A stretch of DNA of 41,246 nt from Candidatus Bathyarchaeota archaeon (GCA_963827165.1 CAWGZR010000014.1:1-41246); one strand, 5' to 3'. Counted from the first letter of the stretch, positions 17,211 through 41,223 are shown. Made by a program: numbers and translations. Notes: generated by a model not told the origin, from the sequence alone.

Positions 17211-17801
17211 ATGAACACAAAAATGCTTGCAACCATCGTCATGTTTGTCTCATTAGCTGCTGCAATCGACGCATTTGTTCCAAAGATTCCCTTTCCAGTT
17301 CCATTGTACTCTTACCTGTACTATAATTTGTGGGAAATTCCGGTGGTTGTCATTTTCATGCTTTATGGGCTAAAATCTGCGATACCTGTTGCCGTGCTTA
17401 ATGCGTTTCTCTTAGTAATAATCTTCCCTGGAAACCTCATATCGGGGCCCTTCTACAACCTACTCGCTGTGTTATCTATGTTGTTAGGAGTTTTTGCCGG
17501 ATACAAAATTGCTACGTATAGATGCCCTAAAGAAACACTATTGCAATTCATGAAGAAGCACCAGTTGGGGCTTGGCATTTCAATGACCACGCTTGGAATC
17601 ATAACCAGGGTATTGATTACCACAATAACCAATTACTATCTGATAGCGCAACCGCCACCAATAGGATTCAGTTTTCCGTACGGTGTGGTACTTGCTTTTC
17701 TACCATTCAGTGCATTGTTCAATGCAACACAGGCACTCCTAACAATACCTTTGGCGCTCGTAACCTCAATCGCCGTTATCTCCGCTTTGAAAATAAAATA
17801 A
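17211..17801 (+). CDS. ECF transporter S-component-like membrane protein
   Basis: KIPFP....L...LWEIPV......YG pattern; about six TM helices; FNA.Q in the last helix. Confidence 0.6.
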   Translation: MNTKMLATIVMFVSLAAAIDAFVPKIPFPVPLYSYLYYNLWEIPVVVIFMLYGLKSAIPVAVLNAFLLVIIFPGNLISGPFYNLLAVLSMLLGVFAGYKIATYRCPKETLLQFMKKHQLGLGISMTTLGIITRVLITTITNYYLIAQPPPIGFSFPYGVVLAFLPFSALFNATQALLTIPLALVTSIAVISALKIK

Positions 17802-17818: not shown

Positions 17819-18778
17819 TTAGAAGCCCAAGGATTCTGATAGTACCTTAGGGTTAATTTGTCCTGCTTTGAAAGTGTTCCCAGTCTTGGCGTTGTTTATT
17901 GTTAGGACTGCTGGGGCGAATAAGCCGTGGTCGATTTTGTAGAAGTCGCGGCCTGCTTCACGGAAAATCTGCAGGAACGGTTTCCCATAATCTTTGGAAG
18001 CCATCGACGGAGCCTGTTCCACAATCTTTTGCAGTGCAGCTTCATCGTCATAATCCACGGTGCAATAGACGTTTCCGCCGTAAAGAATTGCGTCGTTTGT
18101 GCGTGCCATTGCTATTTCGAAGTCTTTGCCAAGGGGAGGAATCGGTGCATAACCCAGGGCGTAGCGGATGACTTTTGGACTTAAGCCAAGGGTTCGAAGC
18201 TTGTGAATTCCGACTTCAACGATTCTTCCAGCAACCTGAGTTAAACCAGCGATGCTTGCAGTCGGTGCGACTACAACAATCAAGTTTGCAGGAATAATGT
18301 TGCTGGCGGTGGTTACTTTTTCGATGAGCGCATCGGTTGGCAATGTGTTGCTTTCTAACGTGAGCACGGCTTTGTCGCTTTGATCTTTGTAGCCTATTTC
18401 CTCGAAAACATCTTTAGGCTTGAGCGCCAAAGCGCGGACTGGACCCGAACCTATGGCTATTTGGTCGCCGTCTTTTATGCGCCAACCTGCAAACTGAGAG
18501 CCCAACGCTGCAATGGCTGGGTGATCCATGCTAATAGTAATTGAGGGGAATGTGATGTTGCCGTACGTTTTGAATCCAATTTGTGCTTTCCCAGCGCCGC
18601 CCATGCAGATTTCGGTTAGTTTTTTGCCTGCATGGAAGCCTCCTGCAGCGTTTACTCCTGCATCGATAATTGTGGCTCCCGCCGTTGATTTTGATACGTT
18701 TACGCCGTAAAATTCTGGGTTATCGATAAGTTTTTGGGCTATTTGCCAAGCCATTTTGTTAACACTCAGTGCCGCCAT
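17819..18778 (-). CDS. mch: methenyltetrahydromethanopterin cyclohydrolase
   Basis: LSVN, IDAGV, GSQFAGW, GSGPVRAL, APTASIAG..QV.GR.VE, NDAILYGG, FYKID..LFAPA. Confidence 0.95.
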   Translation of the reverse strand: MAALSVNKMAWQIAQKLIDNPEFYGVNVSKSTAGATIIDAGVNAAGGFHAGKKLTEICMGGAGKAQIGFKTYGNITFPSITISMDHPAIAALGSQFAGWRIKDGDQIAIGSGPVRALALKPKDVFEEIGYKDQSDKAVLTLESNTLPTDALIEKVTTASNIIPANLIVVVAPTASIAGLTQVAGRIVEVGIHKLRTLGLSPKVIRYALGYAPIPPLGKDFEIAMARTNDAILYGGNVYCTVDYDDEAALQKIVEQAPSMASKDYGKPFLQIFREAGRDFYKIDHGLFAPAVLTINNAKTGNTFKAGQINPKVLSESLGF

Positions 18779-18837: not shown

Positions 18838-19368
18838 TTAACCTCTAAGCCTATGAGAAGCAGACGCTATCCTGTCTTTGCAGAAGTAAATTACAGTCGG
18901 AGTAAATATTGAAAGCGAGGCCAAAAGATAATTCAAGGGAAAAACCGATGGGTACTCGAAGAGGTTGCCGCCCCATGAACCCGCGATGTCTAATAAGCCG
19001 CCTGAAAGCTGGATAAGCGACCAAACCGTAACAGCCAGCAAAGCCCCGCTGAGTCGAGCAAGATATTTTTCCCGTCCCACAAGAATTTTAGATTTAGCAT
19101 TTTGAAAAAAGACCTCACCTGCAACAGCCCCTGCGGCACCCGGGAAAAACGCATTCACCAAAATTTTCTCAACCAAGTTCGCGGGAACATACATGCCGAC
19201 CCATGGAGTTGCAGCCCAACTCAACACGGGTAAGACAACGCTACCAGTTGCAATGCGGATTGTAGCGGGAATAGCGTAGATTGCTGCGCCGCATATTCCC
19301 CAAACCCAAAACCTCCTGCTTCTTAGCATTTTTTTGAAGGCTTCGAAATACATAGGCTTAACATACAT
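18838..19368 (-). CDS. hypothetical membrane protein
   Basis: 176-aa ORF with about four hydrophobic segments; co-oriented with and just upstream of mch. Confidence 0.7.
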   Translation of the reverse strand: MYVKPMYFEAFKKMLRSRRFWVWGICGAAIYAIPATIRIATGSVVLPVLSWAATPWVGMYVPANLVEKILVNAFFPGAAGAVAGEVFFQNAKSKILVGREKYLARLSGALLAVTVWSLIQLSGGLLDIAGSWGGNLFEYPSVFPLNYLLASLSIFTPTVIYFCKDRIASASHRLRG

Positions 19369-19705: not shown

Positions 19706-20662
19706 TTATGGTCTGTAGCCACTGAGGGTGATTAGGGCTAAGGCCGCCGCGGTTAGGTCCGCTGTGGTTCCGGGGTTGCATTTGTTCTGGGTTGAACGCA
19801 ACGTTTGGTCGAAGCGTTTGAGGTTTGCTCTACCGCGAGCGTTTTCTAAACCGCCTAACTCCAAAATGGCTTTTGCCTCGGCAGACACTTCTACAGCTTT
19901 TTGCTGGCCCATTTTTCGTGCGATAAACGTGTCGGGGTGCTCAAAGAGGATTTTAAGGAAAGTGTGAACCACAGCGGTGTTCAAAGGCTTATTTTCAAGC
20001 TGTTCAGCCAGGTATGGGTAGGCTAAATCGAAGGTTACCGGGTAATTGCTAATCCATTCAGCACAGATGTCGTCGTATTGCGCTGCCAAACGAAAAACCT
20101 CAAACAGAGTAACATTTTCTTTCAACAGACGCTCCTTTGACTGGGGGTCTGTGACGTCGAGATCCGGCGCCTTATTTAAGCCGCTTGGATTAGCGATATC
20201 TACCGCCTCGTAAAGGCGCACAGAGTCCCACGCCGTGGTTGCCTTGACCACCAAGTCAATGTTTCGACGCAAAAGAGAAAAATCCATCTCGAAACTTTCG
20301 CCCGCAGGTGTCATTCCTGCCGCAACAGCGATGGGCATAAACAACATTATGGTGCCAAGAATCGTGTTTCCGCCCCTCTGCCAACTGTTAACGTCGCACA
20401 CACAGGACTTTATGAGTTGACCTAACTCAACCTCGCCAACACCAAGTTTGCCTTCAGCCACCAGCGACCCGCGATAAGCGGCCTCTTGAAAACTTGGTCC
20501 CGCAGCGACTGCTGAAGCCAAGAAATGCTGACAAGTTGTCCCCTCAAAGCTCGCGGTTAAGTTGACGTTTCCGGGTTTTTCCGAACTGACTTCAAGCAGA
20601 ATCGCCAACTCCAAGCATTCCGAAATATGTTGAGCTTTTGCACAGTCCTTCATTGGTCGCAT
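19706..20662 (-). CDS. citG: CitG-family triphosphoribosyl-transferase (archaeal/methanopterin-associated type)
   Basis: LEVS..KPGNV, GNT.LG, PDTFIARK.G, NPGTTADL.AA. Confidence 0.88.
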   Translation of the reverse strand: MRPMKDCAKAQHISECLELAILLEVSSEKPGNVNLTASFEGTTCQHFLASAVAAGPSFQEAAYRGSLVAEGKLGVGEVELGQLIKSCVCDVNSWQRGGNTILGTIMLFMPIAVAAGMTPAGESFEMDFSLLRRNIDLVVKATTAWDSVRLYEAVDIANPSGLNKAPDLDVTDPQSKERLLKENVTLFEVFRLAAQYDDICAEWISNYPVTFDLAYPYLAEQLENKPLNTAVVHTFLKILFEHPDTFIARKMGQQKAVEVSAEAKAILELGGLENARGRANLKRFDQTLRSTQNKCNPGTTADLTAAALALITLSGYRP

Positions 20663-20715
20663 CGACTTAACTGGCGCAAAGAAGGTTTATTAAACTTATT
20701 AGAAGACTACAACAA

Positions 20716-21741
20716 GTGGTTCGTTTGAAGGTACGTGAAGGCGACTTAATCAAGACCAAGAGCAACGTGGTTTTTGACGTCAAGGGCTTAACTCACCCCG
20801 ACGGCAAAATTATTGCCTTTCCACGTTTCATCCCGTTGCCACAAGGTACGAGACAAGGGAAAGATGCGGCTTACGACAAAGTCTACAATCTTGGCGACCG
20901 ATTCAAGTACCTGCAGGAAAATCACCCTGACCTAATCATTTTTGACCCTGTGCTGGGCGAAACAATGTGTGAAGTGCCAGTTGACCAAGTGGCTGAACAC
21001 TACAAGCCTGAAGAAAAACTCTGGGCGTTAAGGTCGGCTAAAGACCTCACAATATTGGAGAGCAAGGCTTTGCATTTGGCTGAAGCTCTAAAGACGGAAT
21101 CAGGTATTCCCTGGAGCAGCGTAGGAATTTCTGGGTCGATAATGGCAGGGTTGACTACCGAGAAGTCGGATATTGACCCGCTTGTGTACGGGGTGGAAAA
21201 CTGCAGAAAAGCCTACGCCGCCCTCCAAAGACTGCTAAAACTTGATTGCGGATTCAAGCCTTACACACCAGCCGAGCTGCAGGAGCTGTTCGATTTCCGT
21301 TCGAAGGATACCCAAATGAGCTTCGAAGACTTCGTTCTGGTCGAAAGCCGAAAAGCGTTCCAAGGCAAATTCATGGGCACAGATTACTTCATACGCTTCG
21401 TGAAAGATTGGCGCGAAATCACCGAGCAATACGGGGACGTGCACTACAAAAACAGCGGTTACGCGAAAATAACAGCTAGAATTGCTGATAGTGCCGACTC
21501 GCTTTTCACACCCTGCACCTACAAACTTGAAAACGTCAATGTTGTTGAAGGACCCAAATTGACGCCAATAGCAGAGATTGTTTCGTTCCGCGGCAGATTC
21601 TGTGAACAAGCAGAAAACGGCGAAGCAGTTGAGGCTCAGGGAAAAGTTGAATTGGTCACAGACAACAAGTCAGGCAACGAACATTACCGCCTAATCCTTG
21701 GGAACAAGCCGTCGGACTACATGATTCTTCCCAAGTGCTAA
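20716..21741 (+). CDS. archaeal Pol-beta-type nucleotidyltransferase paralog 1 (COG1665-like)
   Basis: REGD.I.T.....F.V.G..HP at the N-terminus, GISGS......SDIDPLVYG, C-terminal F.EQA..GE.V...G..E.V. Confidence 0.8.
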   Translation: MVRLKVREGDLIKTKSNVVFDVKGLTHPDGKIIAFPRFIPLPQGTRQGKDAAYDKVYNLGDRFKYLQENHPDLIIFDPVLGETMCEVPVDQVAEHYKPEEKLWALRSAKDLTILESKALHLAEALKTESGIPWSSVGISGSIMAGLTTEKSDIDPLVYGVENCRKAYAALQRLLKLDCGFKPYTPAELQELFDFRSKDTQMSFEDFVLVESRKAFQGKFMGTDYFIRFVKDWREITEQYGDVHYKNSGYAKITARIADSADSLFTPCTYKLENVNVVEGPKLTPIAEIVSFRGRFCEQAENGEAVEAQGKVELVTDNKSGNEHYRLILGNKPSDYMILPKC

Positions 21742-22814
21742 TGCTGCACTTTGAGGACTTGTTCGTAGTAGCGTGGGCAATAGGTCAGCGTTATCTGGTG
21801 GAATTGTTCAGTTGGCGACATGACTTCTTCAAGATTTCCTTCAACAATTACAACTTCGTCCCGTTGTGCTTGCTGCCGAAATTCCTCCATGAATGAGAAA
21901 ACCCTCGCGACTTCGAGACCTTCCTTGGGACCGCTTATAAGTTCCAGAGGTTCGACACCGTAGATTGATGGAATAAAGGGTGCTTCATCGTCAGTTGTTA
22001 TGCGTGCCTTGAGTTTAACCCATCCCCTTCGGGTTATACATGTCCGAGGAGCATACTCTGATTTTATTTCACTCCAAGCCTTCACGGGTTCAAACTCAGC
22101 CTTGATGGTTCGCCCGCTGGCTTTGTCATCGTATAACCCGTAAATCTGTTTTCTGCGTTGATGCCAAACAAAGTCGTCAACCGAGAAGTTTTTGAAACGC
22201 CAATCCTTGCCAGCCATCGCCGCGTCAGACTCGAACTCGTTGTGAAAACCAGATTGCCCGTCGTCATACAGGGCATGAAGGGTTTTTCGCATAACAGCGT
22301 TTTCTTTTTTGCCGTAAACTATCAAGTCAATGTCTGAGTATTTGGGGTGGTGAAATCCATGCAGCATGGAGCCGAAGACACCGAAATCCCCCGTTTTTAA
22401 CCCTGAGCAATTAATCGATGTCATGAGAACCCTTTCCATAGCCGCCAGCAACTCATCCGTTGGTCCCGCCTCAAGCAGCTGTTGCAGCCGCACCTCGGGT
22501 TTTCTTGCCTCTGCGACATCGCTGTTTTTCACACCAACAAGATTCAAACCAAGCATCTCATGGAAGACTTGGTATTTAGGGAAATTCTTAGCGACAAGTT
22601 TCATGCCTTCGTCGTTATAGAATTTAAAGTAAAGCTGTCCTCTGCCTGTCCTTGGCGCTCGGGGATCTTTAGAGTCGAAGATTTTTGCTGAAGCATACTC
22701 TGCATCGCAGATGTAAGCGCCTGGTGGATGTGAATAGCCGAAAACGCGGAAGATCAAGCCCTCAGCGGTTTCGATACCGTCGCGGTCACGGAGACCTACG
22801 GTGTTACTGGCCAA
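21738..22814 (-). CDS. archaeal Pol-beta-type nucleotidyltransferase paralog 2 (COG1665-like)
   Basis: [27 protein letters not shown].....[16 protein letters not shown]...VEG.LE.V. Confidence 0.8.
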
Positions 22815-23827
22815 ATATATTCTTCCTCCGAAGTAGCTGTTCCAACAACCACCTGATAATAAACTTCGCTTGATGAGGTGGATTCAACACGTTCAAGCCT
22901 GCCAGAAACCCGAATTGTGTTCCCGCATTTTGCAACGTTTCGATACAGCCCAATATTGGAAACAACCTGAGTGGGAATCTTGTCCAATTCAAGTTCAGAC
23001 TGATCATCTAAGGGTTTGTAGCCTGAAATTCTGTATGTCGCGGGTCGATACATGGTTTCTGTGTCGTCGCTTACTATCGCTTCGAATCTAACCAGGTCAA
23101 GTGGAACGTAGCGGTAAGCGCCATATTTCTCCGTGATTTGTTCGGGTTTTTTGGTGGCGTTGTACATGAATATCTTTCCTTGGTATCTGCCTTGGAATTT
23201 TCTTGCCGCTTCAATGCGGTTGCCGACAATGTAGGTGAGTTTTCCAGCGTTAACAAGCTGCGCTATGGCTTGCTCGACCTGGCGGAAGTTTTGGGTGCCA
23301 TAAACGACAAAGTCAATATCAGATTCGGGAGCATGCATCTGCAATGCTATGGAACCGTGAACGCCCAGGTCGCACAAATCGACGCAAGATTCCTTGGAGA
23401 TTAATGTGATGAGGTCAAGCGCCATCTGCTGAAGTTTGTCGCGTTTAGGAAGGTTCGTCAGCCAAACCAGTCGGTCTTTAGGAACAAAAACCTGCTCAAT
23501 GCGGTCGAACGGCGCCGTGATTAGTTCCTTGTTTCGGAAAGGGCAGAAGTAGAGGTAGTCTGGAAAGTTCTTGCGGAATGCCTCTATGAAGGTTTGGTAG
23601 TTCTTTGCGGTGTAGAGTTTTTCTGCTCTGAAAAGCTGGTTGTCGCCGAACTTCCATGTGCGCTCTAACATTTCAACTTTGAAGAGTTCCCGGTACTGGG
23701 CTGGGATGTACTTTAAGAACGCGAATACGCGGTCATCGGGATGCTCATAGCCAAATGTGTTGAGGATGAAACCGTCTTTGGTGACAAAAGTGTCTCCATC
23801 CATCGGAACCCAAATATCATCAGACAT
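22796..23827 (-). CDS. archaeal Pol-beta-type nucleotidyltransferase paralog 3 (COG1665-like)
   Basis: DGDTF.T.DGFI...FGYEHP, GVHGS.......[22 protein letters not shown]. Confidence 0.8.
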
Positions 23828-24197: not shown

Positions 24198-24375
24198 AAC
24201 AGTTTTCACGAAATCGCATCTTCGTCAAACCGAAAGATTCGAAATCAAAAAATAGACTAAACCAAGTCGAAAAACCCTAAAGAGACAATCCAAAAAAAAC
24301 TCTCAAAGCGAAAAACTTAAGTGTAGAGAGCTTGTTGTTTTGTTCTTAGAACCAAAATCATGGATGTTGAACCAA

Positions 24376-24942
24376 TTGGCTGTTGAAGGTTTTTTCGAAA
24401 ACAAAAAGACACCTGTAGAAGCTAAAGTCGGAGACTTAACCCCACAATCTAAAGCGGTTAACGTTACGGCCAAAGTTGTATCTAAAACTGAAATCAGAGA
24501 AATCCCAATGGGCAGAGACGGCTCTCCACATAAGGTGAGCGACGCGCTGGTCGGAGACGAAACAGGCGTAGTGTACTTGACACTCTGGGATGACAACATT
24601 GAAAAAATAAACGAGGGCGACAGCGTACGCGTGGAAAACGGATACGTAACACTTTTCAAAGGCAACATCCGCCTGAACATCGGAAAATACGGCAAACTTG
24701 AACCAGCAAAAGAACCCCTAGCAGTAGAAGTAAACACTGAAAACAACGTTTCAAGCAAAGCCTACGAACAAGAACGAAGACCATACAGAGGCGGCGGAGG
24801 AGGAAGAGGCGGTTACGGCGGCGGCGGAAGAGATAGAGGACACGGCGGATACGGTGGAGGCGGCGGAGGATACGGCGGAGGACGGGATAGAGGCGGAGAT
24901 CGTCGCGGCAGCGGTGGCGGCGGTTACAGACCGAGATACTAA
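24376..24942 (+). CDS. ssb: single OB-fold single-stranded DNA-binding protein with RGG-rich tail
   Basis: KV.DL......VNVTAKVV, VGDETG...LTLWD, V.LFKG...LNIGKYG, C-terminal GGRGGYGG repeats. Likely TTG start at 24376. Confidence 0.9.
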   Translation: MAVEGFFENKKTPVEAKVGDLTPQSKAVNVTAKVVSKTEIREIPMGRDGSPHKVSDALVGDETGVVYLTLWDDNIEKINEGDSVRVENGYVTLFKGNIRLNIGKYGKLEPAKEPLAVEVNTENNVSSKAYEQERRPYRGGGGGRGGYGGGGRDRGHGGYGGGGGGYGGGRDRGGDRRGSGGGGYRPRY

Positions 24943-33566: not shown

Positions 33567-33879
33567 CGTAAGCCAATTTAGGCATAAATAAGTCCCGTAA
33601 TCATTTTAATGTTTCCCAACCTATTTTGCCACAAGAAATAGGAAAAAAACCATTCCGCGCAACGTGGAATAAATAAAATTACAGGAATATTGCCCCAAAC
33701 GAGGTGAAAACTCGTTAAATGCAGGTTGCAGATTCAAAAGTTGCAATTTAATCGTCAAAATAGAGACAAATTTAAGAAATTCGCTGAAAAAACGCTCTTT
33801 TTGTTTTCACATATATATGCGCATGTTAAAAACAATTAAAAGCGGCTTCTACTGCATGAACATTCAAGAAGATGGTAAC

Positions 33880-34533
33880 ATGTCTGAAAATTTTTCTAAG
33901 AAATGGGAACACAAAAGAGAAGAAGAATCATTAGGCACAACAATAAAAAACACGATAACTCCACCTCCGCCGCTGAAACCTGCGTTAGACTTAGCCGTTA
34001 GAAAACTAGACATGCAAATCGCCAAGCTTGACCAGGCAAACGATCGCTTCACACAAAAAGACAGAGCCCTATTCGCCAAGCTAGTCGACGCCTACACACA
34101 CCATGACACACCACATGCCAACATCTACGCAACTGAATTGGCTGAAATACGCAAAATGGGAAAAATCATAATGAACGCAAGGCTTGCACTTGACCAAATT
34201 TCGCTACGCATCAAGACCGTTTCGGAACTGGGCGACGTAGTCGCGACGCTTGGGCCATGCATCGGCGTACTTCGCAGTGTCAGCACGGGACTCGGCGGTG
34301 TTTTACCTGAAGCAGAAGGCGAACTCGGCAGCATTGGCGACATGCTAAGCGGGTTAATGTTTGAAGCTGGAACAAGCAGCGGAATGTCATTGAACTTCGA
34401 CAACGTAAACGAGGACGCGGCAAAAATCCTAAGTGAAGCAGCAACAGTGGCAGAGCAAAGAGTCAGCCAAAACTTCCCAGACCTGCCTCCGGGAATGCCA
34501 ACAGGGCAAACAGCCAACAAAACCCAAACTTAG
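33880..34533 (+). CDS. ESCRT-III / CdvB-family (Snf7) protein
   Basis: D..LF...V.A...D...A.IYA.ELAEIRK, ALDQI.LR..TV.ELGD....L.P, NEDA.KIL.EA...AE......FPDLP. Start at ATG 33880. Confidence 0.85.
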   Translation: MSENFSKKWEHKREEESLGTTIKNTITPPPPLKPALDLAVRKLDMQIAKLDQANDRFTQKDRALFAKLVDAYTHHDTPHANIYATELAEIRKMGKIIMNARLALDQISLRIKTVSELGDVVATLGPCIGVLRSVSTGLGGVLPEAEGELGSIGDMLSGLMFEAGTSSGMSLNFDNVNEDAAKILSEAATVAEQRVSQNFPDLPPGMPTGQTANKTQT

Positions 34534-35953: not shown

Positions 35954-36328
35954 TTATTTTTGAATGCTGGCCCCAAAGTATTCGCACCAGCTCTTTGGGC
36001 TTTCCCAAACCCTGACTTTCTCCAGCCTGGGTTTCGGGGGTAAGATTTCTTTTAGTTGTTTAAAGTAGTATTTTGCAATGTTTTCGGAGGTTGGATTGTC
36101 TAACTCAGAAATTTCGTTTAGGTATGTGTGGTCGAGTTTGTCAGTTACTGCTTGCAGGGCCGCTTTCAGGATGGCGAAGTCGATCACCATTCCGTTGGGT
36201 TCCGTTTTTTCGGCTAAAACGAAAAGTTCAACTGTCCAAGTGTGTCCGTGAAGCTTTTCGCATTTGCCATTGCTGTCTATAACTTTGTGTGCCGCTGCAA
36301 AAGTTGTTTCCACCCTAAGTCTAAACAT
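35954..36328 (-). CDS. queD: 6-carboxytetrahydropterin synthase / PTPS family
   Basis: FAAAH, KCEKLHGHTW, GMVIDF, LDHTYLN, NPTSENIA, VWESP. Confidence 0.9.
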   Translation of the reverse strand: MFRLRVETTFAAAHKVIDSNGKCEKLHGHTWTVELFVLAEKTEPNGMVIDFAILKAALQAVTDKLDHTYLNEISELDNPTSENIAKYYFKQLKEILPPKPRLEKVRVWESPKSWCEYFGASIQK

Positions 36329-36341
36329 TGCTTTATCCTCG

Positions 36342-37121
36342 CTAAAGGACGCCACTCCATTCTGAGCAGACGTTGTGGTCGTGGATAGATTCAAAACTCA
36401 CGCATTTAACCGTGCAATACCTTTTAGGATACTTCTCTTTTAGCAACTGGACGCATTGTCTTGCCACATCCTCGACGAATTTGGCGTTCTTATGCATGTT
36501 TTCAACCACTTTTTTCTCTTCAGGCCTTTTGAGCAGGGAGAAGGTGGGCGAACTAAAGCTTTGACTGCAAATCCTAAGGACGTCAAGCAAATCTGTGTTT
36601 TCCGTGATGTCAATTTCCACACTTAAAGACCCCCTTTGGTTGTGGGTCAACCCATTGCACATCTCTTTTGAACATGGACATGCCAATGCGCCGTTAACGG
36701 TTATTCCAGCCGTCTTCTTTCCAGTCTTGGTTGAGTATCTTGCGAACATTTGAGCAATTGAGTTTTCTTTTTTGCCGCTTGGCCTAACCCTGTTGAATGG
36801 GAGTTCACCGAAAACTTCTGTTTGACAGTGGAAACCATGCTTCTTAAACGCGGCTTTCGAAATCAGCACAGCCAAATTCTCAATCGAAGCGGCTTCTAAT
36901 GGTATTTCTTCCACAGTCTCGATGAATCGACTCATGTGAACCCCGCGGAGATGAGACGGCAAAGTTATGTAACTATTTATTGTGACAATGATGTTGAAGG
37001 TTCCCTCTGGCCTTTTCAGAGTCACCAATTTGCGAAGACCTTCTACACCAACCTTTTCCAGTTCAATCTCGTTTTCTGGTTTTTGGTTCTGAACGTCAAT
37101 CACCAAATCAATTACCCCCAA
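36342..37121 (-). CDS. GTP cyclohydrolase, FolE2/MptA family
   Basis: DVQ, VGV, RGVHMSRF, ACPCS, HNQRG, LKRPEE, KFVED..R, ESIHDH. MptA versus FolE2 cannot be resolved from motifs alone. Confidence 0.9.
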   Translation of the reverse strand: MGVIDLVIDVQNQKPENEIELEKVGVEGLRKLVTLKRPEGTFNIIVTINSYITLPSHLRGVHMSRFIETVEEIPLEAASIENLAVLISKAAFKKHGFHCQTEVFGELPFNRVRPSGKKENSIAQMFARYSTKTGKKTAGITVNGALACPCSKEMCNGLTHNQRGSLSVEIDITENTDLLDVLRICSQSFSSPTFSLLKRPEEKKVVENMHKNAKFVEDVARQCVQLLKEKYPKRYCTVKCVSFESIHDHNVCSEWSGVL

Positions 37122-37351
37122 TCAATTTCCTAACTGGCATTCCACCCTCGAAATGCCGTGGTTTACTGGATTTAGCTGAGGAGAGAGAAACCCTGTTGCT
37201 TATTATACTTACTTAGTTGATACATTGATTTTCCACGTTTTTTGATGTTCGAAACAGAAAAATACAGCGGTAAACGCCTTGAAAAGTTTGATCAATGTTT
37301 ATTAGTTTCAAATTGCCTAGTCGTTTTTCCAAAAATTTAGCGGTGAATCAA

Positions 37352-38302
37352 TTGCAGAAAGTAAGAATTACGGCTCCAGCCCACCTGCATGCGGGCAACT
37401 TTGACTTAACCGGTGACCTTGGAAGACTATATGGGACTGTTGGTTTCGCAATAGATCTTCCTCTTGAAGTTGGAGTTTCCAAGGCGAAGGGAATTGTGGC
37501 TGAGGACAAGTCAGCGTACAAGTTTGCTAAACGTATGGTTGATAAATTCAGCTTAGAAGGCGCGGAAGTGAAAATCAACAAGGAAATCCCTCGTTTCGTC
37601 GGCGTCGGATTCCACACAACCTTGGCGCTCTCCATCGGCGTTGGGCTGTCAAAACTGTATGATTTGGATTTGACTGTGGAAGATGTTTCTTTGATTATGG
37701 GCCGAGGGACCATAACGGCAATGGGTGTTTACGCTTTCAAGACCGGCGGGTTCATCGTCGAAGGCGGCTTCAAAGTTGATAGCCGAACCAAGATGGTGCC
37801 ACCGCTCATATTCCATGGTGCGGTTCCCAGAAACTGGTTCTTTGTAGTTGCTATCCCCAATGAGTCAAGGCAGAAAATTGCTGAGATGAGAGAAAACGAA
37901 GACGAAATCCTCGGTAACCTCAAAGTCATGCCTAAAGAGTTGTCCGACGAGCTTTCAAGACTTGTCTTAGTCAAACTTTTGCCTGCTTATGTTGAAAAAG
38001 ACCTCAAATCTTTCGGCGAAGCCTTAACCGCTTTCAACTCCAAACTTGGGAAATTCTGGAGAAGCTACCAAGAAGGCACCTACTGCAACCAAGTTGTGGA
38101 AGATGGAATTAAAATCATGCTGCAGAAAAGCTCCCTCGCTTGTCAAACCTCCTGGGGCCCAACGTTCTACTCCATCGTCGAAGGCAAACGGGCTGCAGAG
38201 AATCTGTCCAAGGAGCTAAAAGAGTTCTTAGAGAACAACGGCGGCGGGGAAATCTACGTTACCCATGCGAACAATCATGGGGCATCCGTTCTGAAGGCTT
38301 AA
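37352..38302 (+). CDS. beta-ribofuranosylaminobenzene 5'-phosphate synthase family protein (divergent paralog)
   Basis: AHLH.G..DL.G.LGR.YG.VG, GGFIVEGG, QTSWGPT.Y, ANNHGA. The GHMP loop is atypical (RFVGVGFHTTL). Start likely TTG 37352 after GGTGA. Confidence 0.8.
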   Translation: MQKVRITAPAHLHAGNFDLTGDLGRLYGTVGFAIDLPLEVGVSKAKGIVAEDKSAYKFAKRMVDKFSLEGAEVKINKEIPRFVGVGFHTTLALSIGVGLSKLYDLDLTVEDVSLIMGRGTITAMGVYAFKTGGFIVEGGFKVDSRTKMVPPLIFHGAVPRNWFFVVAIPNESRQKIAEMRENEDEILGNLKVMPKELSDELSRLVLVKLLPAYVEKDLKSFGEALTAFNSKLGKFWRSYQEGTYCNQVVEDGIKIMLQKSSLACQTSWGPTFYSIVEGKRAAENLSKELKEFLENNGGGEIYVTHANNHGASVLKA

Positions 38303-38304
38303 TC

Positions 38305-39456
38305 ATGGTTAAGGCTGTCGGGATAGACTCTGGAACAAAAACAATGGATATCTACGGCTTCGATGACCAAGACGGCAGCGTTCTGATTGATTTTGCGCTA
38401 TCCCGGGAAGAAGTAACCAAAAATCCCAGTCTCGTCATCGATAAACTCTTAGAAACTCAGCGGGTATGCGGAAGAATCGATGCGATTGCTGGGCCAGCAG
38501 GCTATGGGTTGCCGCTTCAAAAAGCCAGAGACACAAAACTGGAAGACATAGCGTTAGCGACTTTTGTTACTCAAGCTGATGTGGAACGCAAAATCAAAAT
38601 CGTGGGCTTAAGGCAACTCATGCGGCTCATGAAGGACACGCCCGAATTGAACATCTGGTTTACGCCCTCGGTGATTCAGTTGCCAACGGTTCCTGAATAC
38701 CGAAAAGCCAACAGGATCGACATGGGCACCAACGACAAGGTTCCAACCGCCATTCTAGCCGTAAAAAACCAAGCACAAAGACTCAAAATCAACTACGACC
38801 AAACCAACTTTATCGTGGTGGAAATAGGGTTTGCGTACACGTCGGCTATGGCAATAAAAAACGGCCAAATCGTCGATGCCATGGCTGGAACCGCTGGGTT
38901 TCCCTCTTTCTTAGGCATGGGCTTCCTCGACGGAGAACTCGTCTACGGCTTAGCCAACACAATGAAGGATTTTCCAAAGTTGACGCTTTTCGCAGGCGGA
39001 GCGGCGGCAGTGGCGGGTTTCGACACGTCCAAACCAATCCAGGGATTAATTGAAGAGGCAAAAAGCAGCGAGAAAATCAAATCTGGCTTGGACTTGATGC
39101 TGGAATCTGTGGTTAAAGATGTGGCGTCGCTTTTGCCATCCGTCAAACCGGCTGAGGTAATTCTCAGCGGAAGATTTTCAAAGATCCCAGCGTTCTACGC
39201 GATGGTTAAAGAAAGGCTTGAGGGTTTCTTTGGCGAGATCGGATCAAAAATTGATGTGGTCAAACTCGAAGGCAACGCGGCGGTCGCTAAGGGCGCGGCT
39301 GAAGGAGCTGCATTATTCGCTAACGGCATCGCACATGGGAAATACGGGCCGATTGTTGAAGTCATGAAGCTTAGGGAAAGCAAAGGCGGCATATTCGACC
39401 ACCTGTATCTGGACGAAAAAACCAAGAAAGCATTGGATGCTTTCAAAAAATACTAG
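38305..39456 (+). CDS. DUF1464-like ASKHA (butyrate-kinase-like) protein
   Basis: GIDSGTKT.D, GPAGYGLP, P.VIQLPTVP.YRK.NRIDMGT.DK, GQIVD...GT, ILSGR, AAEGAA..ANG..G. Confidence 0.8.
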   Translation: MVKAVGIDSGTKTMDIYGFDDQDGSVLIDFALSREEVTKNPSLVIDKLLETQRVCGRIDAIAGPAGYGLPLQKARDTKLEDIALATFVTQADVERKIKIVGLRQLMRLMKDTPELNIWFTPSVIQLPTVPEYRKANRIDMGTNDKVPTAILAVKNQAQRLKINYDQTNFIVVEIGFAYTSAMAIKNGQIVDAMAGTAGFPSFLGMGFLDGELVYGLANTMKDFPKLTLFAGGAAAVAGFDTSKPIQGLIEEAKSSEKIKSGLDLMLESVVKDVASLLPSVKPAEVILSGRFSKIPAFYAMVKERLEGFFGEIGSKIDVVKLEGNAAVAKGAAEGAALFANGIAHGKYGPIVEVMKLRESKGGIFDHLYLDEKTKKALDAFKKY

Positions 39457-39465
39457 CGGGCCAGT

Positions 39466-40233
39466 CTAAACCAGCGACTTTAGCTCTTGCGGCTTGATGT
39501 CGCTGAAACCCCTAACGTCTTCTCCCTTCCCCGTCACGTTATAGAGACCGATGTCTCTGGTCTTTTGTGCCAGCCATTCGAGCAGTTCTTTGCTTATTTT
39601 CATCTTCCCCCGTTTTACAGCGAGAGACTTCACTTTGCGTTTAGAGTATTTGCCCACAGTCAACCCATAGTCCATCCCGGCCAACACAATCAACTTGGCG
39701 CCCATTGTGGCTGCAAGAAAAACCGCTCTGTCTCCATCTGTGAACCCCAAAAAATTGTAAACGTTTGGGCGCGGATCCACCTGTGTGCTTCCAACTGCAC
39801 GGGGGAATTCGGGAACGAACTGATTTAGCTGTTTTATGTTATCGCCGTGCGCATGGATAACTATGGTTGCGCCTTGCTTCTCTGCTGAGACGATGTCGCT
39901 GACTACTCCGTCTAAGTCAGTTACAACCACGTCTGTAACGACTCCAACCTTAAGTAGCGCGGTCGTTGCCCCGTCAGCCACAACCGTCACAAACTTTCGC
40001 AGGACACCCGCATCCATAATCTGCTTGAGGTTTTCTTCCAGCGACGGACCCGCGCCGAACACCAAAACTGGGCGGTTTAAAACGCGTCCTCTTATCGCTG
40101 AAGGATCCAGAGCCTTTCCAGCTAAAAGCTTGCTCAGTATGTCAGCCGCGTACTGGTCTTTCGCTTGGTCATAACCGAATGTCCCGATTATTCTTCGGTA
40201 CCACATCCACCAATCATCCAACCCAAAAGCCAT
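39466..40233 (-). CDS. mptE: 6-hydroxymethyl-7,8-dihydropterin pyrophosphokinase, archaeal type
   Basis: GAGPSL, ADGAT, VVTDLDG, HAHGDN, GFTDGDRA, GMD. Confidence 0.9.
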   Translation of the reverse strand: MAFGLDDWWMWYRRIIGTFGYDQAKDQYAADILSKLLAGKALDPSAIRGRVLNRPVLVFGAGPSLEENLKQIMDAGVLRKFVTVVADGATTALLKVGVVTDVVVTDLDGVVSDIVSAEKQGATIVIHAHGDNIKQLNQFVPEFPRAVGSTQVDPRPNVYNFLGFTDGDRAVFLAATMGAKLIVLAGMDYGLTVGKYSKRKVKSLAVKRGKMKISKELLEWLAQKTRDIGLYNVTGKGEDVRGFSDIKPQELKSLV

Positions 40234-40251: not shown

Positions 40252-41223
40252 CTATGTTGTTCTAATTGACGCGCCCTTGTTGTTGGCTCCCGACCAAAAC
40301 ACTTGGCCGCCCGATTTTTTCTTTAGGAAACCTTGCACTTCTAACGAAAGCTCTTCCGCTTGCCGTTTGCCTTCCACGAGTCCGTAGACAGTTGGTCCCC
40401 ATGAGCTTTGACCAGCCCCAAAGACGCCTCTGTTCAGCATGAACTTGATGCATTCGCTCGATGGCGAACTGGAGAATCTTCCGCCTTGAGCCGAGGCAAA
40501 GTAGTCGCCGACCAAATTTTGTATCTGGGTCAATGCGCTTCCGAAAGTCCCTATGTCTTTCTCCACCAGCGCCGGCAGAAGCGACATCAATATCGACCGA
40601 CTTATTCGTCCAGCCTGTTGCGGAGACATCGGCGGCAAATCTCTAAACGCGTGTGCCTCTGCCTCGCCTGATAAACCGCCCTTAACAGCCGGAATCACCA
40701 CAACAAAAAACCAGTCAGCAGGAAAAGAGGACCGAAAAACCACCGGAGGAAAACCATCCCACGAAGCCATCGCCCTGCCGTTTTGGCTTCTAACGCCCCC
40801 TTCAACAACCAAGCCCCCTTTATCAAAAAGCGCTGTCCCAACGCCAGAAACTCCCCCTCGTCCCATGGCTTTTGAAAGCTCCTTCGTAGAGGCTTCTACC
40901 TTGAACAGTTTTGCAAGAGCAGCGGCAGTCGCTAAGGCAAGCTGGGTTCCTGAGCCTAAACCCACATGCTGGGGAATCGTCTCTTTGACGGCTACGGCGA
41001 CCTCGCGCTTTAGATTGTATTTTTTGAGGAAAAGATCAACCAGAGGCTTCACCAACTCGCTTCTTTCGCCCTCCAATGTGAAGCGTTCCGAGTTTTGAGC
41101 TTCGACAATCGCGTTCGGCTGGTCTAATGCGACGCCGATGCCTCCAAAGAGTCTTCCTAAGTCACCTCCTAAATCAATGAGCCCTAAATGAAGCCTAGCA
41201 CAAGCCTTAACGTAAACCCTCAT
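40252..41223 (-). CDS. mptG: beta-ribofuranosylaminobenzene 5'-phosphate synthase (canonical motifs)
   Basis: ARLHLGLIDL.G...R.FGGIG, HVGLGSGTQLAL, GRG..SG.G...F..GG.VVEGG, GQSSWGPTVY, ANNKGA. Confidence 0.85.
   Translation of the reverse strand: MRVYVKACARLHLGLIDLGGDLGRLFGGIGVALDQPNAIVEAQNSERFTLEGERSELVKPLVDLFLKKYNLKREVAVAVKETIPQHVGLGSGTQLALATAAALAKLFKVEASTKELSKAMGRGGVSGVGTALFDKGGLVVEGGVRSQNGRAMASWDGFPPVVFRSSFPADWFFVVVIPAVKGGLSGEAEAHAFRDLPPMSPQQAGRISRSILMSLLPALVEKDIGTFGSALTQIQNLVGDYFASAQGGRFSSSPSSECIKFMLNRGVFGAGQSSWGPTVYGLVEGKRQAEELSLEVQGFLKKKSGGQVFWSGANNKGASIRTT

Follow-up and report, generated by a model that had tools for sequence, protein, structure and literature searches.

A CitG homologue and an archaeal nucleotidyltransferase family with a probable role in methanopterin-type cofactor synthesis

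CitG moves the 5-triphosphoribosyl group from ATP onto a hydroxyl, forming an alpha linkage and releasing adenine. CitX and MdcG join the alpha-phosphate to a serine hydroxyl, and pyrophosphate is released. In the reaction of Pol-beta nucleotidyltransferases (NTases), a hydroxyl attacks a ribose 5'-triphosphate at its alpha-phosphate. In this study, we analyzed a locus in which a citG gene is found beside three genes for NTases of the Pol-beta type. It is located in a stretch of 41,246 nucleotides (the window) from a Candidatus Bathyarchaeota archaeon (GCA_963827165.1, CAWGZR010000014.1:1-41246), whose source genome (Bathyarchaeia) comprises 3.13 Mb and is 94.5% complete.

Tetrahydromethanopterin (H4MPT) is the carrier of one-carbon (C1) units in methanogenesis and in the anaerobic oxidation of methane, as well as in the Wood-Ljungdahl pathway of archaea and in formaldehyde oxidation by bacteria. 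Its side chain is composed of ribitol, an alpha-ribose 5-phosphate, and a phosphodiester to the 2-hydroxyl of hydroxyglutarate. To our knowledge, no enzyme has so far been assigned to the addition of either the alpha-ribose 5-phosphate or the 2-hydroxyglutarate to this side chain. A full-text literature search, with supplements outside its scope, found no link of CitG or of the NTase family (including its Methanocaldococcus jannaschii member, MJ1086) to methanopterin synthesis, and no mention of COG1665 or COG1767.

Here we report that the NTases very probably work in the synthesis of a methanopterin-type cofactor. A role of both the CitG homologue and the NTase family in this synthesis is well supported by their co-occurrence in two phyla, by operons in three lineages, by one gene fusion and by the presence of the NTase in methanogens.

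The citG locus and its protein families

The citG gene (19706..20662, minus strand) and the first NTase gene, NT1 (20716..21741, plus strand), diverge from a spacer of 53 nt (20663..20715). NT1 converges on NT2 (21738..22814, minus strand) with a 4-nt overlap in which the stop codons interlock, and NT3 (22796..23827, minus strand), upstream of NT2 and codirectional with it, overlaps it by 19 nt. An original prediction, made from this sequence alone, had described a citG gene divergent from, and 53 nt away from, an overlapping NTase block. The coordinates agree with the distance and with the overlaps, but they divide the block into two transcription units. In the middle of the spacer, approximately 22-30 nt from the start codons of citG and NT1, is the A/T-rich element TTTATTAAA (20686-20694), which may be a shared TATA box of these two genes if both are leaderless.

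The gene for methenyl-H4MPT cyclohydrolase, mch (17819..18778, minus strand; PF02289, 391 bits; TIGR03120, 374 bits against a cut-off of 228.8), is separated from citG by 927 nt, close to the predicted 1 kb. A single membrane open reading frame (ORF) lies in between; it is located directly downstream of citG (18838..19368, minus strand) and encodes a hydrophobic protein of 176 aa without a Pfam or NCBIfam match. We considered a conserved small ORF after citG and rejected it, as the 176-aa ORF, a 166-aa ORF at the citG locus L041 and a 172-aa ORF of Sulfolobaceae gave no convincing alignment with each other. The window's own methanopterin (mpt) genes are 12-17 kb away from the NTase genes and not in an operon with them. 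As predicted, no genes for citrate lyase, malonate decarboxylase or acyl carrier protein (ACP) were found in the window. NT1, NT2 and NT3 are the only copies of the NTase family in the source genome.

Residues 15-310 of the citG product align to positions 2-283 of the 284 positions of PF01874 (230.5 bits; gathering cut-off 27), and a profile of archaeal CitG proteins matched Escherichia coli CitG over its full length (244 columns; hhalign probability 99%, E 6.6e-18). By these alignments the product is a true member of the CitG family, of the archaeal, methanopterin-linked type. Against the CitG/MdcB equivalog models TIGR03125, TIGR03132 and NF002315, whose cut-offs are 272-282 bits, it scored only 34.8-49.3 bits, in alignments that cover just its C-terminal third. 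Searches for CitX (PF03802), MdcG (PF10620) and CitD-type ACP (PF06857) gave no match in the 94.5%-complete source genome; E. coli, the positive control for CitX and ACP, matched both. Among the control genomes, CitG was also matched in M. jannaschii, M. acetivorans, H. volcanii and S. acidocaldarius, and CitX in E. coli only. Because CitG is thus found in a source genome without CitX, MdcG or CitD-type ACP, and in archaeal control genomes without CitX, the archaeal protein must have another acceptor and another downstream partner, and the absence of matches to these three proteins in the source genome leaves no competing role for its CitG.

The three NTases are full-length and mutually diverged, with pairwise identities of 25-31%. 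Nine residues are invariant among them (in NT1 numbering, G140, S141, S151, D152, I153, D154, V157, Y158 and G159), which bears out both the predicted Pol-beta character and the signature GS...SDID.VYG ascribed to all three. Hidden Markov models gave a divided result for them: PF01909 (NTP_transf_2; cut-off 21 bits) matched NT2 with 25.1 bits, NT1 (17.0 bits) and NT3 (19.4 bits) gave weak scores below the cut-off, and no NCBIfam model matched any of them. MJ1086 scored 39.6 bits with the same Pfam model. A profile search of 1.84 billion representative sequences identified 1453 family members at E <=0.001. H27, G137, G140, S141, D152, D154, G159, G309 and E312 are invariant across an alignment of 112 members. 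A GS motif followed by the D.D metal-binding motif of the Pol-beta superfamily is present in NT1, NT2 and NT3, in the 112 members and in every clade of the family described below.

An AlphaFold (AF2) model of NT1, based on the 112 members, had a pLDDT of 97 and a pTM of 0.92. The N-terminal part (residues 1-108) is a small beta-barrel that carries an insertion; modeled alone (pLDDT 92), this domain had weak matches of the KOW/Sm/SH3 type only (best Z 4.7), too weak for any function to follow from them. Residues 110-233 correspond to the Pol-beta palm, with Pol X (3au2, Z 8.4), Pol beta (4p4m, 7.6), Trf4 (3nyb, 7.5) and Cid1 (4e7x, 7.3) as matches at a root-mean-square deviation of 2.6-4.0 across 87-91 residues; these Z values are middling and count only jointly with the GS and D.D motifs. 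Residues 245-341 adopt an OB fold similar to those of SSB, RPA, editosome OB proteins and the MCM N-terminal domain (Z 7-8.8), and also likened to the anticodon-binding domain of AspRS. Since the invariant E312 is located in the OB domain, this domain probably helps form the active site. Foldseek searches of the PDB with the whole model had no match at E <=0.001, only local rows for the OB fold, and no relevant entry came from a profile search of PDB sequences. NT1, NT2 and NT3 represent an uncharacterized archaeal family with a predicted architecture of small beta-barrel, Pol-beta palm and OB fold.

A maximum-likelihood tree of 48 sequences resolved four clades, A (98/90), B (91/90), C (100/100) and D (100/100; ultrafast bootstrap/SH-aLRT), each with members from Bathyarchaeia, Thermofilaceae and Asgard archaea. 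Clade A includes NT1, clade C includes NT3 and clade D includes NT2; clade B is not represented in the window. In a second, quick tree, the NTases of euryarchaeal methanogens formed a clade of their own (SH-aLRT 97) beside A and B+C, and the single NTase of Sulfolobaceae was placed near clade B, a position that is unsure because of its long branch. Clades A-D and the methanogen clade have all conserved the GS and SD.D motifs together with G159, P266, G309 and E312. Only Sulfolobaceae sequences are without H27 and E312, and no clade has lost the catalytic motifs. As many as four old NTase paralogues occur in TACK and Asgard archaea, and in Asgard genomes A is adjacent to B and C to D.

Distribution, gene order and fusion

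In the window's own order, the NTase was found in 37 of 41 genomes, CitG in 35 and Mch in 40; three genomes of this order that are 91-98% complete (G028, G032 and G034) lack both NTase and CitG and have kept mch. We extended the census to an even draw of 301 Thermoproteota genomes, among which related genomes are not independent. NTase and CitG occurred together in 136, NTase only in 12, CitG only in 3 and neither in 150. Entire families lack both proteins throughout (0 of 43, 0 of 17, 0 of 25 and 0 of 20 genomes). Even so, the pattern divides within families as well: in one (f31), NTase, CitG and the beta-RFAP synthase MptG are found in the same 12 of 18 genomes, and in another (f35) all three are found in 1 of 10 genomes (G311).

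The same association was seen in Asgard archaea (101 genomes: both proteins in 62, NTase only in 5, CitG only in 17, neither in 17). It is asymmetric, in that CitG is present in 62 of 67 NTase-positive genomes and the NTase in 62 of 79 CitG-positive ones. That NTase implies CitG more than the reverse fits an enzyme that acts on the CitG product. The NTase was further found in 105 of the 108 MptG-positive Thermoproteota (TIGR00144, E <=1e-20) and in 76 of the 79 that are positive for the ASKHA-type protein DUF1464, both among the 301, as well as in all 43 MptG-positive Asgard genomes.

Five Bathyarchaeial genomes of 95-100% completeness (G053, G169, G183, G025 and G029) have kept mch, CitG and NTases and have no gene of the MptG family. 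This suggests salvage of the cofactor or of a precursor. Where the known de novo route seems impossible, the retention of the NTase module may mean that precursors are salvaged and then completed.

Gene order provides additional evidence. Among 80 named citG loci, mostly from Bathyarchaeia, an NTase gene was found in the flank of 58, and within 500 bp of citG in 26. Of the 57 named citG loci in which the NTase ORFs are full-length, 33 repeat the order of the window (C, D, then the convergent A, then citG). Because the source genome has only three copies of the family, because the cluster recurs in 37 of the 41 genomes of the window's order, and because its gene order is repeated at other citG loci, the C-D-A-citG arrangement is not due to chance. 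Beyond citG, many Bathyarchaeia have MobB, FwdB-like, FwdC-like and mch genes, which recur in 31-40 of the 80 loci. The Cdv genes CdvA, Snf7-like and Vps4 also recur near named citG loci (L034-L113). One contig with the Bathyarchaeial C-D-A-citG layout (L065) is labeled as an Acidiferrales bacterium metagenome-assembled genome and is probably mis-binned; an NTase labeled as Thermoleophilia may reflect the same kind of mis-binning.

The clearest operon was found in an Asgard locus (L139), where genes for MptG (NF040726, 381 bits; cut-off 328), DUF1464, the dihydromethanopterin reductase DmrX (TIGR02700, 299 bits; cut-off 251), an MptH-like, dihydropteroate-synthase-like protein (TIGR00284, 376 bits; cut-off 257), the GTP cyclohydrolase MptA (TIGR00294, 295 bits; cut-off 220) and two NTases follow each other on the forward strand in this order, with ends that overlap or nearly touch. 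CitG is encoded 3.4 kb beyond this operon, on the opposite strand. The order and sizes of these ORFs are repeated in another genome (L140), in which one ORF only has an HMM annotation. MptG, an NTase pair and CitG lie within about 15 kb in eight Asgard genomes among the matches listed (G333, G342, G353, G373, G382, G398, G404 and G410). A gene at L139:10650-11762 (minus strand), between the mpt-NTase operon and CitG and next to a 350-aa ORF without a family, encodes a 370-aa protein with an N-terminal winged helix and a TiaS-TCKD-like part. It matches TIGR03280 ('methanogenesis marker protein 11') at E 2e-45, under the cut-off, and could be a further methanopterin gene.

In a Sulfolobaceae genome (G249), whose relatives are named Metallosphaera, Acidianus, Saccharolobus and Sulfurisphaera, genes for DUF1464, an NTase of 294 aa, CitG and the 172-aa ORF overlap end to end. 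CitG and DUF1464 are 907-952 nt apart on the same strand in all 10 genomes of the Sulfolobaceae family, and the intervening NTase was confirmed in G249, the one genome checked for it. A gene fusion was also detected: in P0150 (505 aa; two contigs), residues 8-134 are a domain of 6-hydroxymethylpterin pyrophosphokinase, HPPK (PF01288, E 3e-40), and residues 173-503 are an NTase of clade A.

The idea that the NTases complete the pterin side chain predicts that they occur in organisms with true H4MPT, and homologues were indeed found in methanogens, including MJ1086 and, by cluster names, proteins of Methanococcus voltae. MJ1086 is 33% identical to NT1 over its full length (335 residues, E 3e-53). 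Its homologues carry the names Methanocaldococcus, Methanococcus, Methanothermococcus, Methanofervidicoccus, Methanobacterium, Methanothermobacter, Methanomicrobiales and Hydrothermarchaeota, and control searches of M. jannaschii matched CitG, MptG and Mch. Among 80 methanogen-type metagenome loci (L142-L221), the NTase is single-copy in 79. Its recurrent neighbors there are Sua5/YrdC-like (26 loci), AMP-phosphorylase-like (24), DUF366 (24), PTPS (21), radical SAM (21) and homoserine dehydrogenase (18) genes; the DUF366-PTPS-radical SAM trio lies divergent to the NTase.

These observations bear directly on the original prediction. Co-occurrence and synteny with citG and pterin genes, which it had set as a test, were found in Thermoproteota and Asgard archaea, and a joint action of CitG and the NTases on a methanopterin-type cofactor is strongly supported by the co-occurrence, the L139 and Sulfolobaceae operons, the HPPK fusion and the methanogen homologues. 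The prediction is borne out in part, however: it had called the NTases CitX-equivalent capping enzymes, and they are not homologous to CitX and at most analogous to it.

Proposed chemistry and alternatives

The best explanation, to which we give about an even chance, is that citG and the three NTases build the side chain of a methanopterin-type C1 carrier in two steps. In the first, CitG would place the ATP-derived 5-triphospho-alpha-D-ribosyl group on the free 5'-hydroxyl of ribitol in a pterin-aminophenyl-ribitol intermediate, and adenine would be released; this would mirror the action of CitG on dephospho-CoA. The product would resemble a nucleoside triphosphate with the cofactor in the position of the base and, being such a triphosphate, could be capped by an NTase with hydroxyglutarate. 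In this second step, the NTase would let a hydroxyl acceptor attack the alpha-phosphate, with release of pyrophosphate. The acceptor in methanogens would be (S)-2-hydroxyglutarate, which would give the ribose-5-phosphodiester found in H4MPT. Bacteria that make the dephospho form would use the CitG step and a phosphatase only. The substrates, 2-hydroxyglutarate as the acceptor and the order of the steps are inferred. We put the specific reaction, a CitG-dependent phosphodiester capping, at slightly under an even chance and propose it tentatively. If it is correct, the CitG homologue and the NTase family including MJ1086 would be a concrete candidate pair for the last side-chain steps of H4MPT, with a mechanism in which a cofactor intermediate takes the role of a nucleoside triphosphate.

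Several points weigh against this proposal. Cell-extract work by R. H. White reportedly showed that the ribose phosphate is donated by phosphoribosyl pyrophosphate (PRPP) and that hydroxyglutarate is added in an ATP-dependent reaction; these results have no obvious fit with an ATP-derived triphosphoribosyl intermediate. An alignment of the NTase family with CitX revealed no sequence homology (hhalign probability 0.9%), and the modeled C-terminal OB fold and TUTase-like palm are typical of nucleic-acid enzymes. The coupling of CitG and NTase is not absolute. Of the NTase-positive genomes, 12 of 148 in Thermoproteota and 5 of 67 in Asgard archaea gave no detectable CitG, and CitG was absent even at E 0.01 from three NTase-positive Bathyarchaeia that are 97-100% complete (G033, G084 and G076), of which G033 (97%) belongs to the window's order. 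In family f34, CitG is represented by a very divergent CitG-like ORF only, and 17 of 79 CitG-positive Asgard genomes have no NTase. MptG is missing from 43 NTase-positive Thermoproteota and 24 NTase-positive Asgard genomes; five such Thermoproteota of 95-100% completeness have weak GHMP-kinase matches only. Either the module also serves salvage in these organisms, or it is not tied to de novo synthesis. Among the 48 methanogen-type loci of at least 9 kb, none has citG within 8 kb, and the neighbors of the methanogen NTase point to no mpt operon there and offer nothing for the pterin pathway. Finally, a passage of PMC8141765 assigns the genes orf5, orfY and orf17 of the bacterial 'archaeal-like' island to methylofuran, not H4MPT. 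It follows that nearness to mch alone assigns no gene to pterin synthesis.

A first alternative is that the NTases serve the same pathway at another step. They could nucleotidylate, and so activate, a methanopterin intermediate or the hydroxy-acid partner with an ordinary NTP, or act after a PRPP-dependent ribosylation; in either case they would be independent of a CitG-made triphosphate, and CitG and DUF1464 would catalyze separate, neighboring steps. The genomes and methanogen-type loci in which the NTase is found apart from CitG are as expected under this alternative, as is the reported use of PRPP followed by ATP and hydroxyglutarate. The L139 operon, where the NTases join MptG, DUF1464, DmrX, MptH-like and MptA and CitG stands apart on the other strand, points in the same direction, and so does P0150, in which the fusion partner HPPK is an early pterin enzyme. 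It accounts less well for the close adjacency of CitG and NTase genes in both Bathyarchaeia and Sulfolobaceae, for the presence of CitG in 136 of 148 NTase-positive Thermoproteota, and for the Asgard asymmetry, which fits an enzyme that uses the CitG product. We regard this alternative as a whole as possible but rather doubtful.

A second alternative, that the NTases act on RNA in tailing or tRNA modification and are linked to CitG and pterins only indirectly, is very unlikely. It draws on structure, as the palm is nearest to Pol X, Trf4 and Cid1, the OB fold resembles SSB, RPA and the AspRS anticodon-binding domain, and the N-terminal small barrel is of the KOW/Sm type, a weak likeness (Z <=4.7); the Sua5/YrdC-like, PTPS and radical-SAM (QueE-like) neighbors in methanogen-type loci would also suit it. 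However, the distribution of the NTases tracks CitG, MptG and DUF1464, with 150 of the 301 genomes lacking NTase, CitG and MptG together, and whole families of Thermoproteota are without the NTase, unlike a core RNA enzyme. The Asgard mpt operon and the HPPK fusion are likewise hard to reconcile with a function in RNA metabolism. Least probable of all is that the NTases are functional analogues of CitX/MdcG that attach a phosphoribosyl prosthetic group to a serine of a carrier protein, one paralogue per target: although the CitG-family gene adjoins the NTases, the CitG product goes to a protein in all known systems and several paralogues could match several targets, the genome has no match to CitD/MdcC-type ACP, citrate lyase or malonate decarboxylase, the 80 citG loci have no conserved small-protein neighbor, the NTases lack homology to CitX, and the genomic context is cofactor biosynthesis.

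Under the proposed two-step synthesis, the number of NTases calls for an explanation. Methanogens manage with a single copy, and one NTase type therefore probably suffices for the known diester, the core reaction. The conserved adjacent A-B and C-D pairs, with intact catalytic residues, fit heterodimers and enzymes with different acceptors equally well, so that the several acceptors and the undescribed pterin suggested in the original prediction have no advantage over a heteromer. The same would apply to the adjacent, overlapping C and D genes of the window, which may encode either heteromeric partners or an enzyme for a further acceptor. Positions 292-293 of NT1, in the OB domain, differ cleanly by clade (A, RG; B, EG; C, IG; D, VE; methanogens, TH).

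These features could be combined in one speculative reading. The A/B and C/D types would have different acceptors, and positions 292-293 would be the switch for acceptor specificity; the pterin ribose phosphate of Bathyarchaeia, Thermofilaceae and Asgard archaea would be decorated beyond, or instead of, 2-hydroxyglutarate; and MptG-less Bathyarchaeia with CitG and NTases would start from a salvaged precursor and reconstruct the side chain on it. Taken jointly, we consider these four suppositions unlikely. If they hold, there are pterin cofactors not yet described. The up to four old paralogues in TACK and Asgard archaea in any case raise the question of the true structure of their C1 carrier.

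Other genes of the window and comparison with known systems

At the far end of the window is a group of further pterin genes. A PTPS/QueD-family gene (35954..36394, minus strand; PF01242; TIGR03367, 103.7 bits; cut-off 89) and a gene for a FolE2/MptA-family GTP cyclohydrolase (36342..37121, minus strand; PF02649, 199.7 bits; TIGR00294 (MptA), 181.7 bits, under the cut-off of 220) are followed by a second MptG (beta-RFAP synthase) family paralogue (37295..38302, plus strand; TIGR00144, 140 bits; cut-off 113.5), a DUF1464 gene (38140..39456, plus strand; PF07318, 288 bits), an MptE-like 6-hydroxymethylpterin diphosphokinase gene (39466..40233, minus strand; PF01973, 97.9 bits) and a gene for an MptG-family beta-RFAP synthase (40252..41223, minus strand; TIGR00144, 203.8 bits against 113.5; NF040726, 242 bits, under the cut-off of 328). 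The second MptG paralogue and DUF1464 (37295-39456) form a pairing that many genomes of Thermoproteota and Asgard archaea share. Among the 16 other genomes of the window's family, none had a DUF1464 match, and the source genome may thus have acquired the pair.

Elsewhere in the window, an SSB-like OB-fold protein with a long glycine/arginine-rich C-terminal tail (24340..24942, plus strand; PF21473) and CdvB (33817..34533) are encoded. A membrane ORF at 17211-17801 was considered as the ECF-type protein seen near mch elsewhere and was rejected, since it had no significant likeness to it. The G+C content is 0.61 in positions 1-2000 and approximately 0.45 elsewhere in the window; the two ORFs of this first part have no Pfam or NCBIfam match. 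An Rfam scan of the window found no RNA family.

The closest parallel to the citG-NTase locus is the CitG/CitX system of E. coli (citCDEFXG). In both, a CitG-family enzyme is encoded beside a nucleotidyl-type transferase, and the proposed two-step logic, loss of adenine followed by loss of pyrophosphate, is the same. The window's NTases differ in having neither homology to CitX (family profile against E. coli CitX, 0.9%) nor a PF03802 match, and its CitG scores far under the equivalog cut-offs. The source locus also lacks ACP and lyase genes, its context is methanopterin, and its acceptor is presumably a small molecule. MdcB/MdcG of malonate decarboxylase follows the same logic as CitG/CitX, and MdcG is assigned to the Pol-beta NTase superfamily, as the window's NTases are. 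By the Pfam model, through which alone the two were compared, neither the NTases nor the genome match PF10620, and the window's NTases differ in their small barrel-palm-OB architecture and in their length of about 340 aa.

In coenzyme F420 synthesis, CofC and CofD form a phosphodiester between a polyol tail and a 2-hydroxy acid via a nucleotide-activated intermediate. Compared with the proposed system, the folds of CofC and CofD differ, and they activate the acid, not the cofactor. Pol X, Trf4 and Cid1 share the palm fold, the GS motif and the D.D motif with the window's NTases. Unlike these enzymes, the NTases have no PAP-associated or fingers domain and have a small barrel and an OB fold of their own, and their distribution follows cofactor genes.

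The C1 gene islands of methylotrophic bacteria resemble the window in the position of a CitG-type gene near mch. We take orf7 of the 'archaeal-like' island of Methylosinus to be a CitG homologue. The gene order of this island, mch-orf5-orf7, is given in a passage of PMC3615186, and a passage of PMC11533326 gives the order mch, glutamate ligase and 'triphosphoribosyl-dephospho-CoA synthase' for Methylomonas DH-1. Bacterial dephospho-H4MPT is described in part of PMC8141765 as being without the phosphate and the hydroxyglutarate. If the proposed division of labor between CitG and the NTases is true, it would explain why bacteria with a CitG-type gene alone stop at the dephospho form.

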